The translations under genes and the position numbers were made by a program. Shown here in pieces: positions 10,734 through 32,813 of a DNA stretch of 53,611 nucleotides (position 1 is the first letter of the stretch; every line of letters begins with the position of its first letter). The notes under the pieces are model-generated. The model saw only the letters and a program-made list of their open reading frames with translations, was not told where the DNA came from and searched no databases. The DNA comes from a virus (Duplodnaviria > Caudoviricetes), in IMG/VR virus record IMGVR_UViG_3300036861_000061, positions 1-53,611 of that record, one strand, 5' to 3'.

Positions 10734-10925
10734 CTATTCCTCAACTTCTTCGATATCGCCTGGCAATACATAATACCTCTCATGTAGCGCCCAATAAAAA
10801 CAGTCAGGATGAGTCCAAAACTGTTGTTGAGGGCGATCACTATCGGGACGAAAAAGACCTACTTCCCATGCCTCTTCCGCATCCATACCCTCATTACAAA
10901 AACAGCATCCAAACTTGATTTCCAT
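10734..10925 (-). CDS. Small Zn-finger-like protein coupled to the Ro60 gene
   Basis: CCFC...HPDC; TAATG overlap with the TROVE stop. Confidence 0.65.
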   Translation of the reverse strand: MEIKFGCCFCNEGMDAEEAWEVGLFRPDSDRPQQQFWTHPDCFYWALHERYYVLPGDIEEVEE

Positions 10926-12529
10926 TAGTTCTTACTAAAGTCACTAATAACCTGGGGAACTGCTGTGTCAAATCCAACGACATCAAGCATCCCTGCATCA
11001 TTCGAGTCAGCAATACTGAAACCATTGGAAGTCATTCCAACAACAACCAGCTTAGCATTTATTCCGGTCTGGTTACGGTATTCCTTGAGCGCTTGAGCAG
11101 GATGAATCCTGCCAGCCCACGTTTCACTGTCGGTGTAAATAATGAACGTTTCTATAGCCTGCCAATTACCCATTGCATACTGCTGACCAGCGGCGACGAT
11201 AGGGAGAGAACAATCCGTCCAACCGAAGTTCATACGCCGCGTCTCACGCAATAGGTCGTCTAGACGTTGACGGGCACTGAAGCCAACAACTGTAAGACCT
11301 TCGGTGAAGGCAGTAACCATACACTGAGGTTCTACTGCAACATGCACCATACACATTGCACAAGAACCTTCCGCCGCAGACAACATCGTGCCAGCCAAAG
11401 ACTGACCCATAGAACTACTAACATCAAGTCCTATCAGGGTCCTCTTGTTGGTCGGTTCTACGTTCCCGAAAGCGGTATAAAACGCAGCGTCCAGCGCATC
11501 TACAACCTTTGCGTCCACATTCCAACTTCCCGCCCCGCGATATCCGTGCCCAGCACTGTACGTCCTGAGGGCCATCAATATCTGTATAGGGTGAATTCCC
11601 GACTTCAGAATATGTTCCTTGTTGGACAGTTGGTCGCATACGATCTTCTCCGCATCCGACATAGGGGAAAGAACACCACTCTTGGAAAAATTGCCAAGAT
11701 TACGCACAAGTGCGATCATAGGCATACCATTCTCAAGAAGCTTCATCTGAACTTTAGGACTAGGAAGCATATCGGTACGTAATGCTTCACGCGGAAGGTC
11801 AGGATATTTCTGTAGGATATTTACAGTAGCCTCAGGACTTGTAGCCGCTTGGGCATGCATGAATGCCTCATGTAAGGGATGCAGCTTCCTATCAACATCC
11901 CCAGGACCAAACTGCTCAACAGCAAACCTAAGTATACCGTCCATCACGGGATCATCAGCCTTAGGATGCGCTAAACGTAACACATCCCTGTGGGTATAAC
12001 CCTCACGCTGACGGTATTTGATTACTTGATAAGCAAGCTTGTCAGGTTCTTTCTCAAGATACCAATTAGCTACCGCAGTACGGAGTCCGCGGGACCATCC
12101 TTTGAACTGATGGACGTATCCGAGGAATTGGAAGAGATGGGTTCCGATACGCGCAACCTTAGGAAGCGCATTATACGCTGCCTTGCGAGTCTCATCATCA
12201 CCGGTTCCCACTGCCATAGCAAGTGCAAATAACGCCGGATCATTCTTAGGTGCCCTCTTACTTGCGGATACGTCAACAATCTTCTGCACCGCGCGAGGAC
12301 CATCCTCAGCGATGCACTCCAACGCGCCAGTCGCGTTGTCAACAGTTAACTTGCGCTCGGAGATGTAATAGGTCCCACCTTCCGAACCAAGAATTAAGAA
12401 GCGCTCTAGGCGCGCCCACTTGTCGATCTGCCACACGAAGCCGCCAGCAGAGTTCGGAACTTGCGTAGAACCCGGTATCGCCTGCAATTGCGGCGTCACC
12501 CTAATAGAGAAACCCTTGTATGCACTCAT
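10925..12529 (-). CDS. rsr: Ro60 / TROVE-vWA RNA-binding protein
   Basis: TROVE N-terminus QVPNSAGGFV...RLERFLILGSEGGTYY and KYRQREGYTHRDVLRLAHP; vWA MIDAS DVSSSM, TDCSLP, YTDSETW and GMLDVVGFD; 534 aa. Confidence 0.96.
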   Translation of the reverse strand: MSAYKGFSIRVTPQLQAIPGSTQVPNSAGGFVWQIDKWARLERFLILGSEGGTYYISERKLTVDNATGALECIAEDGPRAVQKIVDVSASKRAPKNDPALFALAMAVGTGDDETRKAAYNALPKVARIGTHLFQFLGYVHQFKGWSRGLRTAVANWYLEKEPDKLAYQVIKYRQREGYTHRDVLRLAHPKADDPVMDGILRFAVEQFGPGDVDRKLHPLHEAFMHAQAATSPEATVNILQKYPDLPREALRTDMLPSPKVQMKLLENGMPMIALVRNLGNFSKSGVLSPMSDAEKIVCDQLSNKEHILKSGIHPIQILMALRTYSAGHGYRGAGSWNVDAKVVDALDAAFYTAFGNVEPTNKRTLIGLDVSSSMGQSLAGTMLSAAEGSCAMCMVHVAVEPQCMVTAFTEGLTVVGFSARQRLDDLLRETRRMNFGWTDCSLPIVAAGQQYAMGNWQAIETFIIYTDSETWAGRIHPAQALKEYRNQTGINAKLVVVGMTSNGFSIADSNDAGMLDVVGFDTAVPQVISDFSKN

Positions 12530-12756
12530 TTAAACTCCCCGATACGAGCATTTAGTTCTTTGATACGCTTATTATTCCTGAAAATAGAACGGGAATTACG
12601 TAAAGTAATCACAAACATTATAGCACAAAAAGCAAATGCTAAGGAATTAAGCCAATGACCTTCAATCATAAAAGGCACTTGACTCAACACACATATAGCC
12701 ACCAAAATAGGAGCTATATAAGCAACAACCATACTAAATCTCATGACATCCTCCAC
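12526..12756 (-). CDS. Small two-TM membrane protein between the RNA array and Ro60
   Basis: Two hydrophobic segments; stop overlaps the Ro60 start (ATGA). Confidence 0.65.
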   Translation of the reverse strand: MEDVMRFSMVVAYIAPILVAICVLSQVPFMIEGHWLNSLAFAFCAIMFVITLRNSRSIFRNNKRIKELNARIGEFK

Positions 12757-12762
12757 TTATAA

Positions 12763-12832
12763 AGATACAGATAAATTAATGACTAAGGATATTTATCTTA
12801 AGAGGATAACCCTTTGTCTTCGACCCGTATCT
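12763..12832 (-). ncRNA. Y-RNA-like element Y1 (minimal, 70 nt)
   Basis: AGAUACGGGUCGAAGACAAAGG...CCUUAGUCAUUAAUUUAUCUGUAUCU; outer stem, bulged-C helix, middle stem, small hairpin. Confidence 0.8.
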
Positions 12833-12912
12833 AAACTGTCCCCTCAACCCGTCAAGGTTGATATGTTATGGTCCATTACTAAGTGTTCTCAGAGCCATGA
12901 ACCAAGGCTCAG

Positions 12913-13091
12913 GGGGGAAGCTAGGACTTGAACCTAGAACCTTCGGTTCCCTGTAGATAACCCTAACCTATCGACCCGTAACGTTGCGTTTCCCTGCTGC
13001 TTGGCTGAACACCTATTTAATTATATTGTTACGGATAAATTTATTCGGTAGGAATCATAACCAATGCTCTACCAATTGAGCTACTTCCCCC
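12913..13091 (-). ncRNA. tRNA-Y RNA chimera Y2 (tRNA body with a 112-nt Ro-stem insert replacing the anticodon loop)
   Basis: GGGGAAG/CUUCCCC acceptor, GCUC-AAUUGGUA-GAGC D-arm, UUGGU/ACCGA anticodon stem, CUAGG-UUCAAGU-CCUAG T-arm. The insert has AAUUUAUCCGUAAC before GUUACGGGUCGA. Confidence 0.8.
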
Positions 13092-13096
13092 AAGTA

Positions 13097-13249
13097 TTAC
13101 AGCAAGTGCTCAGCACAATACTCAACCAAATGTTCGGCGCACACCCGCAACGGACCACCGCCGCACAACGGATTGCAGAACTGCAGCACTTCGACCACCG
13201 GCCGTCCGCAAGCTGCGTCCCCGACGTACCACCCGCACCCCGCTGCCAT
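13097..13249 (-). CDS. 50-aa Cys-rich mini-protein inside the RNA array
   Basis: GGGGGAGG SD; MAAGCGWYVGDAACGRPVVEVLQFCNPLCGGGPLRVCAEHLVEYCAEHLL. Confidence 0.65.
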   Translation of the reverse strand: MAAGCGWYVGDAACGRPVVEVLQFCNPLCGGGPLRVCAEHLVEYCAEHLL

Positions 13250-13269
13250 CGTATACCTCCCCCATGACT

Positions 13270-13379
13270 GAGCAGATAAGTTATTGAAGTGGAATTTGAC
13301 CAGCACCACGCCTAGGTGAGAATCGAACTCACTCGCCTTCTTTTCAATAGAAGATAATCCACATTCATTCGACCCGCTC
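13270..13379 (-). ncRNA. Y-RNA-like element Y3 (anticodon-like hairpin plus T-arm)
   Basis: GAGCGGGUCGAAUGAAUGUGGA...UCCACUUCAAUAACUUAUCUGCUC; inside are CUUCU-AUUGAAA-AGAAG and GUGAG-UUCGAUU-CUCAC. Confidence 0.8.
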
Positions 13380-13385
13380 GCTGAT

Positions 13386-13483
13386 TAGACAGATAAGTTA
13401 CTAAACTAGAAATCCCTATTTATAGGGCGACCCCAAGGAACACCTTGGCTGGGGAAGATAATCTAATTTACTCGACCCGTCTA
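13386..13483 (-). ncRNA. Y-RNA-like element Y4 (two non-tRNA hairpins)
   Basis: UAGACGGGUCGAGUAAAUUAGA...UCUAGUUUAGUAACUUAUCUGUCUA; inside are CCAAGG/CCUUGG and CCCUA/UAGGG hairpins. Confidence 0.8.
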
Positions 13484-13494
13484 CTACGACTTAG

Positions 13495-13592
13495 TGTAGA
13501 TAAGTTATAGGAATAAGATAGCGGACTCGAACCGCATATAGCCTCTCGAGGCTACTCTTAACCAATAGATAATCTTATTCAATCGACCCGCA
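13495..13592 (-). ncRNA. Y-RNA-like element Y5 (D, anticodon-like and T arms in canonical tRNA order)
   Basis: UGCGGGUCGAUUGAAUAAGAU...AUCUUAUUCCUAUAACUUAUCUACA; inside are UCU-AUUGGUUA-AGA, UAGCCU/AGGCUA and GCGG-UUCGAGU-CCGC. Confidence 0.8.
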
Positions 13593-13636
13593 ACTAGCGT
13601 TACTAAAGTCTTACTTTTATCGTCCACCAAAAAACA

Positions 13637-14002
13637 TTACCAGGTCTCCTCTTCCGTTGCAAGTTCTTCTTGCTTATTAGGCTCTGGGAGAGTAGTAGAA
13701 ATAGAATCAGCAACTATCTCCACATATTCCTTTTTAGGCCCATCTTCAGGAGCATATTCTCTCCATTGAAGACGACCAGTGATATGCACACTTTCTCCCT
13801 GCTTTAATGCATTAACTGGTTCACGATCATTACCAAAAACAAGAACAGTAAAATACTGATTAATCCATTGCATCTCCCCACTAGCATCCTTCTGTCTACG
13901 GGGAGCATTCATCCTAATCTGAGTAGGACCTTTACCTGATGCTCCAGGATTAGGCTTGGGATCAAATGAAAGTCTTCCACTAAGTACAACGAAGTTTGGC
14001 AA
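13637..14002 (-). CDS. ssb: Single-stranded DNA-binding protein
   Basis: NFVVLSGRL, VHITGRLQWREY, EIVADSI and an acidic tail ending in W; GGAGG SD before a TTG at 14002. Confidence 0.88.
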   Translation of the reverse strand: MPNFVVLSGRLSFDPKPNPGASGKGPTQIRMNAPRRQKDASGEMQWINQYFTVLVFGNDREPVNALKQGESVHITGRLQWREYAPEDGPKKEYVEIVADSISTTLPEPNKQEELATEEETW

Positions 14003-14372
14003 TTCTAGCCTCCACTTTACGTTCCTCCCAACCGGGCATCGCGCCAGCATAGCACACCTGACGCGATACCGCCACGATCCAATCACGTTGACGTTCAGTC
14101 AATACAACTACAGGTAGACAAAGGTTGATATGGTCAATCATCGCATAATCATTAATAATTGCTAAGCGTCCACGGGAGAGCCGAGGGACGCTGAGCAGCA
14201 ACTCATACGTCGGCATGTCGCCTAGGCGTTCCATGGGTTGTCGAAGGGCAGCAGCGAGGGAAAGAGAGCCGTCCTTCACATCTCGTTTCACCGCCGCGCG
14301 GGCGCGCTTGCTAATAATTGACTGAGCCTGTGCTTTAGGTTGGGTCTTTAAAGCGTATGAATAATCAGTCAT
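13980..14372 (-). CDS. Actinobacterial integration host factor (mIHF/sIHF)-like H2TH protein
   Basis: RARAAVKRDVKDGSLSL...MPTYELLLSVPRLSR...LTERQR parallels my recollection of the mIHF pattern RARAELKxxLKxG...LLEALPKVGK...LGDRQR. Confidence 0.7.
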   Translation of the reverse strand: MTDYSYALKTQPKAQAQSIISKRARAAVKRDVKDGSLSLAAALRQPMERLGDMPTYELLLSVPRLSRGRLAIINDYAMIDHINLCLPVVVLTERQRDWIVAVSRQVCYAGAMPGWEERKVEARIAKLRCT

Positions 14373-32508: not shown

Positions 32509-32515
32509 CGCACGT

Positions 32516-32588
32516 GCGCCGGTAGCTCAGTGGTTAGAGCGGCAGGCTTATATCCTGTATGTCGTAGGTTCAAATCCTACTCGGCGCA
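32516..32588 (+). tRNA. tRNA-Ile(UAU)
   Basis: GCGCCGG/TCGGCGC acceptor; GCAGG-CTTATAT-CCTGT anticodon arm; canonical D and T arms. Confidence 0.9.
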
Positions 32589-32589
32589 T

Positions 32590-32660
32590 TACCGGCTCGT
32601 CTAAAGGCAGGACATAAGGTTTTGGTCCTTATAATCTAGGTTCGACTCCTAGGCCGGTAG
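32590..32660 (+). tRNA. tRNA-Gln(UUG)
   Basis: TACCGGC/GCCGGTA acceptor; TAAGG-TTTTGGT-CCTTA anticodon arm; G73. Confidence 0.9.
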
Positions 32661-32663
32661 TAT

Positions 32664-32737
32664 GGCGCTATAGACTAATTGGATAAGTCCCTAGTCCTTC
32701 AAACTAGATGATGCGGGTTCAAATCCCGCTAGCGCTA
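32664..32737 (+). tRNA. tRNA-Glu(UUC) with atypical C33
   Basis: GGCGCTA/TAGCGCT acceptor; CTAGT-CCTTCAA-ACTAG anticodon arm. Confidence 0.75.
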
Positions 32738-32741
32738 TTAG

Positions 32742-32813
32742 GCCCCCGTAGCTCAACGGTAGAGCAAAGGTCTTTTAAACCTGAGGTTGTGGGTTCGATT
32801 CCCTCCGGGGGTA
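32742..32813 (+). tRNA. tRNA-Lys(UUU)
   Basis: GCCCCCG/CGGGGGT acceptor; CTTTTAA anticodon loop; one mismatch each in the anticodon and T stems. Confidence 0.88.

Follow-up and report, generated by a model that had tools for sequence, protein, structure and literature searches.

The window analysed here is a whole assembly, a 53.6-kb phage contig (53,611 nt; IMG/VR virus record IMGVR_UViG_3300036861_000061, Duplodnaviria, Caudoviricetes) that encodes a portal, an SU10-type adaptor and a large terminase. On its minus strand, ahead of an rsr gene for a Ro60 orthologue, lies a tRNA-shaped element (13090-12914) that we take, with a probability of roughly 0.8, to be a phage-encoded Y RNA of the YrlA class, laid out in ordinary tRNA order with an open acceptor stem and a closed Ro helix. 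Bacterial Y RNAs have so far been depicted with their ends in the Ro-binding stem, and YrlA as a permuted tRNA whose acceptor is closed; a class that is widespread, linked to rsr and laid out in native tRNA order, with its acceptor open, alters that picture. The anatomy of the element, its same-strand linkage to rsr and its membership of a conserved, covarying family located beside rsr are all direct observations. The tRNA-shaped part is built from the following features.

13091 (−): G-1, which could pair with C73 as a tRNA-His-like eighth pair
13090-13084 (−): 5' strand of the acceptor stem, GGGGAAG, 7/7 Watson-Crick pairs with 12920-12914
13083-13082 (−): U8 and A9, between the acceptor strand and the D arm
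13081-13066 (−): D arm, stem GCUC/GAGC, loop AAUUGGUA; A15 partners U48 (Levitt pair)
13065 (−): A26, preceding the 5' strand of the anticodon stem
13064-13060 (−): 5' strand of the anticodon stem, UUGGU, 5/5 pairs with ACCGA including one G-U
13059-12948 (−): insert of 112 nt replacing the anticodon loop
12947-12943 (−): 3' strand of the anticodon stem, ACCGA
12942-12938 (−): variable loop AGGUU, 5 nt
12937-12921 (−): T arm, CUAGG-UUCAAGU-CCUAG
12920-12914 (−): 3' strand of the acceptor stem, CUUCCCC
12913 (−): C73; CCA is not encoded, the next bases being C and U

The 7-bp acceptor stem, the D arm, the 5-bp anticodon stem, the T arm and the 112-nt insert that the original prediction had described are thus all in place, with every tRNA stem completely paired and with the conserved D- and T-loop residues of a cloverleaf. 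What a tRNA has and this element lacks is the 7-nt anticodon loop, since 112 nt separate the strands of the stem. The permuted order of YrlA is likewise absent: the D arm comes first, the T arm comes last and the acceptor is open, and we found neither a T arm within 220 nt upstream of the element nor a D arm downstream of it. ARAGORN in intron mode made a single intron-tRNA call in the window, c[12912,13090], and none when the window was shuffled 100 times with dinucleotides preserved. The element was not called by ARAGORN in default mode or by Rfam at gathering threshold; the Rfam tRNA model (RF00005) gave 18.6 bits, against a gathering score of 29, for the 5'-end stretch 13090-13032 alone. 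Neither program called a tmRNA at the element, and Rfam 15 returned no match to a Y-RNA family at gathering threshold or at E up to 10.

The insert itself reads as one long irregular arm, in which a helix (H2) leads to a bulged-C Ro helix closed by a 45-nt loop, with the motif GGUUAUC on the 3' side of H2.

13052-13047 (−): 5' strand of H2, CCUACC, pairing with 12968-12962 both in the covariance-model alignment R1 (see below) and as a family helix
13039-13028 (−): first strand of the Ro helix, UUUAUCCGUAAC (UUUAUCCG plus a UAAC extension), which is the 3'-end strand in ordinary Y RNAs
13027-12983 (−): apical loop closing the Ro helix, 45 nt, unusually long for the family
12982-12971 (−): second strand of the Ro helix, GUUACGGGUCGA (GUUAC-GGGUCGA), in which C12973 is bulged; a putative Rsr contact whose motif is akin to GNCGAAN0-1G
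12968-12962 (−): 3' strand of H2, GGUUAGG, with one bulged U, overlapping GGUUAUC
12962-12956 (−): GGUUAUC, corresponding to the YUAY motif of YrlA

Pairing in the Ro helix joins UUAUCCGUAAC (13038-13028) to GUUACGGGU[C]GA (12982-12971), around a core of UUAUCC and GGGU[C]GA; this bulged-C helix forms in the element, and its pairs covary in the family. Being internal and closed by a loop, it is not made from the RNA's own 5' and 3' ends as in ordinary Y RNAs, and the ends of this RNA likely lie in the acceptor stem. Four neighbouring Y-RNA-like units carry GGGUCGA first and the UUAUC(U) strand last, the opposite of the order in the element. The reversal of the Ro arms and the loop of about 45 nt already noticed from the sequence are both confirmed.

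The rsr gene is placed as follows.

10925-12529 (−): rsr, encoding a Ro60 orthologue of 534 amino acids with TROVE and Ro60 vWA domains (E 1e-36 and 7.6e-60)

The start of rsr (12529) is 384 nt downstream of the end of the element (12913) on the same strand, well inside the neighbourhood by which bacterial Y RNAs were recognised in the main text of Chen 2014, that is, within 4 kb of rsr and on the same strand. The window has five copies of a Y-RNA signature, CGGGTCGA-N8/9-GRTTATCY, which all lie between ssb and rsr on the minus strand, within 12804-13590; none of 100 shuffles contained a match and none is expected by chance.

A search for homologues with the same arrangement, as the original prediction had proposed, showed that it recurs beside rsr in phage contigs and in bacteria, with covariation. 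The scanner demanded 7/7 acceptor pairs, a 4-bp D stem, a T arm, a Ro motif inside, a length below 190 nt and no upstream closing partner; an element counted as truly tRNA-ordered if it had no T arm upstream and no D arm downstream that could close the acceptor. The signature matched 97 viral-contig stretches, and a tblastn search placed an rsr homologue beside or near the signature in 34 of 101 loci; the pattern scan of genome contigs yielded at least 120 stretches. Among the matches listed, the scanner recovered 107 distinct tRNA-order elements in 79 loci, 65 of which also hold an rsr homologue; in most of the remaining loci that were inspected the element sits near the locus edge. Carriers comprise phage contigs and six bacterial phyla, and include, according to the record titles of loci up to L195, Sorangium and Polyangiaceae, Deinococcus, Cyanobacteria, Chloroflexota, Armatimonadota and Gemmatimonadota (Longimicrobium among them). 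Contigs with tRNA-order elements include L030/L050/L086 (identical), L044, L080, L102/L103, L104, L107, L108 and L115. The closest Rsr fragment is encoded by L080 (62% identity over 170 residues), whose element has G-1, C73 and the trailer CCUGAG in common with that of the window.

Canonical closed-acceptor YrlAs are found in the same kind of material. They are present in five of the seven annotated phage records inspected (FuzzBuster, Cashline, BearBQ, ScottMcG and Magritte) and in contigs L005, L009, L105 and L106. The RNA regions read in those seven records do not show the tRNA-order form, Sixama and Comrade having other or no clear units, and none of the records carries a Y RNA annotation. 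ARAGORN intron calls at L023 and L013 proved to be artefacts in which the D arm of one canonical YrlA had been joined to the T arm of the next, and those at L064, L034 and L031 probably have the same origin.

We then asked how far the fold is supported by covariation, using 77 members other than that of the window in a MAFFT alignment (A2) that was not fitted to the structure. As the scanner had imposed the acceptor, D and T pairing, only features that it did not impose count as tests. The Levitt pair 15:48 is G:C in 58 members, A:U in 17 and something else in 2; the window element has A15:U48, and its D and T arms thus come with the tRNA tertiary pairs, including a covarying Levitt pair, that mark YrlA. 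Pair 72:97 of the Ro helix is G:C in 63 members, A:U in 13 and otherwise in 1. The Ro helix is paired in 95.9% across the 77 members and H2 in 65-79%, the latter figure being that of an unfitted alignment. Overall, 87.3% of cells are paired, compared with 72.3% in shuffles (0/500 reach 87.3%) and with 37-55% when partners are slid by 1-3 columns. RNAalifold run on the same unfitted alignment predicted the acceptor (including -1:73), D, Ro and T helices. An enclosing anticodon stem at the canonical positions has a mean of 3.02 pairs, against a mean of 2.0 and a maximum of 2.32 in 1000 permutations and against 1.5-2.4 pairs in shifted registers. This stem reaches at least four pairs in 30 members and a perfect 5 bp in nine, window included, with nine different sequences; the gap from GGUUAYC to its 3' strand is 4-8 nt in the eight other perfect-stem members and 8 nt in the window element. 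The perfect enclosing stem and the short gap therefore assign the window element to a subtype whose Ro module is enclosed in its entirety by the anticodon stem.

R1, a covariance model derived from the 77 other members with the window left out, had its top-scoring hit in the window at 12915-13089 (−) (58.6 bits, E 3e-13), aligning H2 and the Ro helix and leaving a 53-nt apical insertion. It did not separate the family from tandem canonical YrlAs or from plain tRNAs, and for that reason was not used for counting. Folding by minimum free energy retained the acceptor stem, the D arm and the Ro helix (z = -2.2). The homologues, together with the anatomy, support the geometry that the original prediction had put forward, namely that of YrlA, with the Ro stem at the anticodon position, but with an open acceptor end.

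Several observations weigh against this assignment. Covariation of the acceptor, D and T stems is partly circular, given how members were collected. R1 gives the phage's own tRNAs 52, 51, 33 and 31 bits, so that the margin over a plain tRNA is small. Most members have, in place of the enclosing stem, a hairpin after GGUUAUC with a 7-nt anticodon-like loop, which means that the junction geometry is not uniform and that the window element represents a minority subtype. In the element, the minimum-free-energy fold favours a local hairpin of UUGGU with the ACCGA at 13049-13045 over the enclosing anticodon stem, although this hairpin overlaps the 5' strand of H2, CCUACC (13052-13047), and is thus at odds with a helix conserved in the family. 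The Ro motif, GUCGAUAG, differs by one base from the published GNCGAAN0-1G, with U at that position common in the family. The element is an outlier in the family by its 45-nt apical loop and its 177-nt length; its two Ro-strand motifs are 56 nt apart, against 3-24 nt in the 105 other members measured. Finally, the sequencing runs listed for the element are two of soil-metagenome DNA, one of them probably its source, and none of RNA; the reads show no variants.

The hairpin that follows GGUUAUC in most members deserves description in its own right. It corresponds to the 'V' stem-loop in the main text of Chen 2014 (PMC4201824). Its loop follows the pattern CU-NNN-A-A/C (for instance at L127 5451-5571, L162 2930-3050 and L215 6474-6596), with a variable middle triplet (CCA, GUC, CAU, UUU, GCU and others), and has the look of an anticodon loop, U33 and the purine at 37 included. 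In R1 alignments, the anticodon arm of genuine tRNAs is placed on this hairpin.

The unusual loop lends some weight to a different reading of the product, in which cleavage of the 45-nt apical loop after transcription would leave a two-piece Y RNA whose acceptor stem and Ro helix both have free ends, as in the RNase P-cut YrlA of Mycobacterium smegmatis. The loop is uniquely long and follows a GUAAC/GUUAC extension that is also seen as the 5' hairpin of unit 1 in the array, much like a former spacer between units, and the Rsr-bound two-piece YrlA described for M. smegmatis in the main text of Chen 2014 provides a precedent. We nonetheless judge a two-piece RNA unlikely, as we see no evident processing site and as 105 other members close their Ro helix within 3-24 nt, which makes a closed Ro hairpin the family norm.

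It is somewhat less credible still that the element is a dead tRNA gene, into whose anticodon loop a Y-RNA hairpin or the junction of two units had landed to give a functionless product. The five ordinary tRNAs that the phage has elsewhere, the outlying length of the apical region and the lack of an RNA run among the sequencing runs that match the element would all suit such a relic. They have to be set against four intact tRNA stems with A15:U48, and against an architecture kept in 107 elements with compensatory changes and with linkage to rsr. Least probable is a tRNA precursor from which the 112-nt insert would be spliced as an intron to yield a decoding tRNA: the ARAGORN intron-mode call and the 40-59 bits that the Rfam tRNA model gives several bacterial relatives as 120-150-nt tRNAs are countered by the lack of any match to a group I intron or any other intron family in Rfam at E up to 10 in 12500-13900, by the fact that nothing like a 7-nt anticodon loop is left between the stem strands, and by conservation in the insert that is that of a Ro-binding module and not of splice-site features. 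Bacterial tRNA group I introns are, moreover, far longer than this insert.

A YrlA-class Y RNA in tRNA order, our preferred reading, is best appreciated next to the systems already described, for which we draw on the main text of Chen 2014 (PMC4201824) and on the available portions of Wang 2018 (10.1101/312249) and of PMC12135203. In the first of these sources, YrlA consists of a T arm, a closed acceptor stem-loop and a D arm, with a GNCGAAN0-1G Ro motif and a YUAY motif. YrlA's tRNA-like domain, as solved in the second, is a circularly permuted tRNA with a closed acceptor and an anticodon stem leading to the Ro site, and the description of YrlA on which the original prediction relied agrees with that preprint. 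YrlA (Salmonella, actinobacteria and actinophages) and the element are alike in lying beside rsr in the same orientation and in presenting the Ro site on the arm at the anticodon position. They also have in common a GNCGA-type Ro strand, H2, YUAY (GGUUAUC), a variable region that has RGGYY at its end, and T and D arms with tertiary pairs, modules that we saw directly in the canonical YrlAs of FuzzBuster, Cashline, BearBQ, ScottMcG and Magritte. In these phage YrlAs, the modules run from Ro strand, H2, GGUUAUC and variable region to T arm, acceptor, D arm and the other Ro strand. The two designs differ in order and ends: YrlA proceeds from Ro strand through T arm, closed acceptor and D arm to the second Ro strand and ends in the Ro helix, whereas the element proceeds from acceptor through D arm, Ro hairpin and T arm back to the acceptor, ends in an open acceptor of 7/8 bp and has its Ro helix closed by a loop.

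Other tRNA-like RNAs resemble the element in part. The Y RNA Yrn1 of Deinococcus radiodurans, as described in the main text of Chen 2014, is also tRNA-like, has its D arm before its T arm and is encoded, together with a tRNA, in a polycistronic array upstream of rsr; its Ro helix, however, extends from the acceptor-equivalent stem, with an anticodon-like arm between the D and T arms, a design that matches units 1 and 3 in the neighbourhood rather than the tRNA-order element. The Ro60 protein of a Thermus phage binds host PNPase and a pair of Y-like RNAs that lie upstream (PMC12135203). tmRNA and viral tRNA-like structures are likewise tRNA mimics with an open acceptor end, theirs being processed and chargeable; unlike them, the element has no mRNA-like part and no pseudoknots. 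No description of a Y RNA in tRNA order was found in Rfam 15 or in the literature searched, which left aside the supplements of Chen 2014, two reviews, and Burroughs and Aravind 2016 (b7a-tRNA).

The closest parallel for the open acceptor is the processed YrlA of M. smegmatis which, in the main text of Chen 2014 (PMC4201824), is cleaved by RNase P, has CCA added in vivo and is still bound by Rsr. Processed YrlA and the element both combine a tRNA-like domain with an open 7-bp acceptor stem. The former is an Rsr-bound RNA with an RNase P 5' end and a CCA 3' end; its acceptor is opened by cleavage of the loop, which gives two pieces, whereas that of the element is open by gene order, so that a single piece is possible.

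Acceptor ends across the family are in keeping with this parallel. An eighth acceptor pair is possible in 77 of the 107 elements; G-1:C73 is present in 37, and G-1 accompanies C73 in 37 of the 42 elements that have C73. The original prediction had allowed that this pair might be chance in a G/C run; on these counts it is probably not, although it may still reflect shared ancestry. CCA directly follows position 73 in 18 elements and comes one base later in nine more. Such features would fit maturation by RNase P and the CCA enzyme, as for M. smegmatis YrlA, and would leave room for charging with histidine.

In the mechanism that we propose, the element would be co-transcribed with the four other Y-RNA units, the small open reading frame (ORF) that follows them and rsr. 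Host RNase P would cut the 5' end of the acceptor, and 3' trimming and the CCA-adding enzyme would finish the 3' end, as for the opened acceptor of M. smegmatis YrlA. The phage Rsr would bind the bulged-C helix, and the tRNA-shaped end may then tether Rsr to a tRNA-recognising partner or substrate, or shield the RNA from exonucleases, roles already suggested for YrlA and Yrn1. RNase P/CCA processing, so far seen only in M. smegmatis, could in that case be a common route for tRNA-order Y RNAs. A bolder version, which we consider rather unlikely, holds that these RNAs are tRNA-like in maturation and are aminoacylated, that Rsr is thereby tethered to a charged tRNA mimic without an anticodon, acting as a decoy for host tRNA-directed nucleases or coupling decay to charging, and that the family links authentic tRNA to permuted YrlA. 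The last part of this proposal is drawn from the fact that two tandem copies, read across their junction, give a canonical YrlA.

That the element, or its family, is an evolutionary intermediate between tRNA and YrlA is plausible, with evolution in either direction. Tandem tRNA-order units with one common acceptor sequence occur at L124 4604-4870, L202 1634-2075 and L231 3176-4863, and each of these arrays admits two readings, as tRNA-order units or, across the junctions, as canonical YrlAs. They connect both designs without giving the direction of change, and the 'dimeric tRNA origin' model of YrlA gains in them a concrete substrate, readable either way.

The element belongs to an array that, in one phage, sets five Y-RNA-like units of three designs ahead of the phage's own Ro60 gene. 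The other members of the array and its flanking genes are as follows.

13637-14086: ssb gene, on the other flank of the RNA array
13497-13603 (−): Y-RNA-like unit 1, Ro strands at its ends, then a D-like arm, a hairpin and a T arm; Yrn1-like order
13387-13482 (−): Y-RNA-like unit 2, two hairpins and no T arm; simple hairpin type, read by eye
13270-13379 (−): Y-RNA-like unit 3, a D-like arm, then a T arm; Yrn1-like order
12763-12832 (−): Y-RNA-like unit 5, simple hairpin type
12526-12756 (−): ORF of 76 amino acids between the RNA array and rsr, its stop overlapping the rsr start; no family match

No close relative of the phage was found: the RNA array had no blastn match among annotated phages, and Rsr-seeded searches for the locus returned nothing in viral or genome contigs and one 42%-identical metagenome contig. 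With Rsr as tblastn query, annotated phages yielded 354 records, all below 60% identity.

The spacer between unit 3 and the element (13092-13312, minus strand) stands out by its GC content (58%, against 44.5% in the window) and gave no folding signal (z = +0.5); it contains GGUGGUCGAAG, a match to GNCGAAG, and a 70-amino-acid ORF without a family match. Unit 1 opens with a small hairpin, GUAAC-GCUA-GUUGC, just before GGGUCGA, which mirrors the GUAAC/GUUAC extension in the tRNA-order element. The five ordinary tRNAs of the phage lie at 32515-32813 and 2820-2900, those for Ile-UAU, Gln-UUG, Glu-UUC and Lys-UUU in a tight cluster and that for Leu-UAA apart; tRNA-His is not among them. In the Microbacterium phage Magritte, an annotated tRNA-Arg(tct) (OR553905.1 76028-76104; L239 1934-2010) is the 5' half of a canonical YrlA, made of a Ro strand, GGUUAUC, a hairpin with the loop CUUCUAA and a T arm, with the closed acceptor and the D arm coming next. 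In the bacteria Sorangium (L175, L179) and Deinococcus (L133, L154), a tRNA-order Y RNA lies at the edge of, or within, an ordinary tRNA array beside rsr; in Sorangium, it is located downstream of rsr, and about ten tRNAs come after it.
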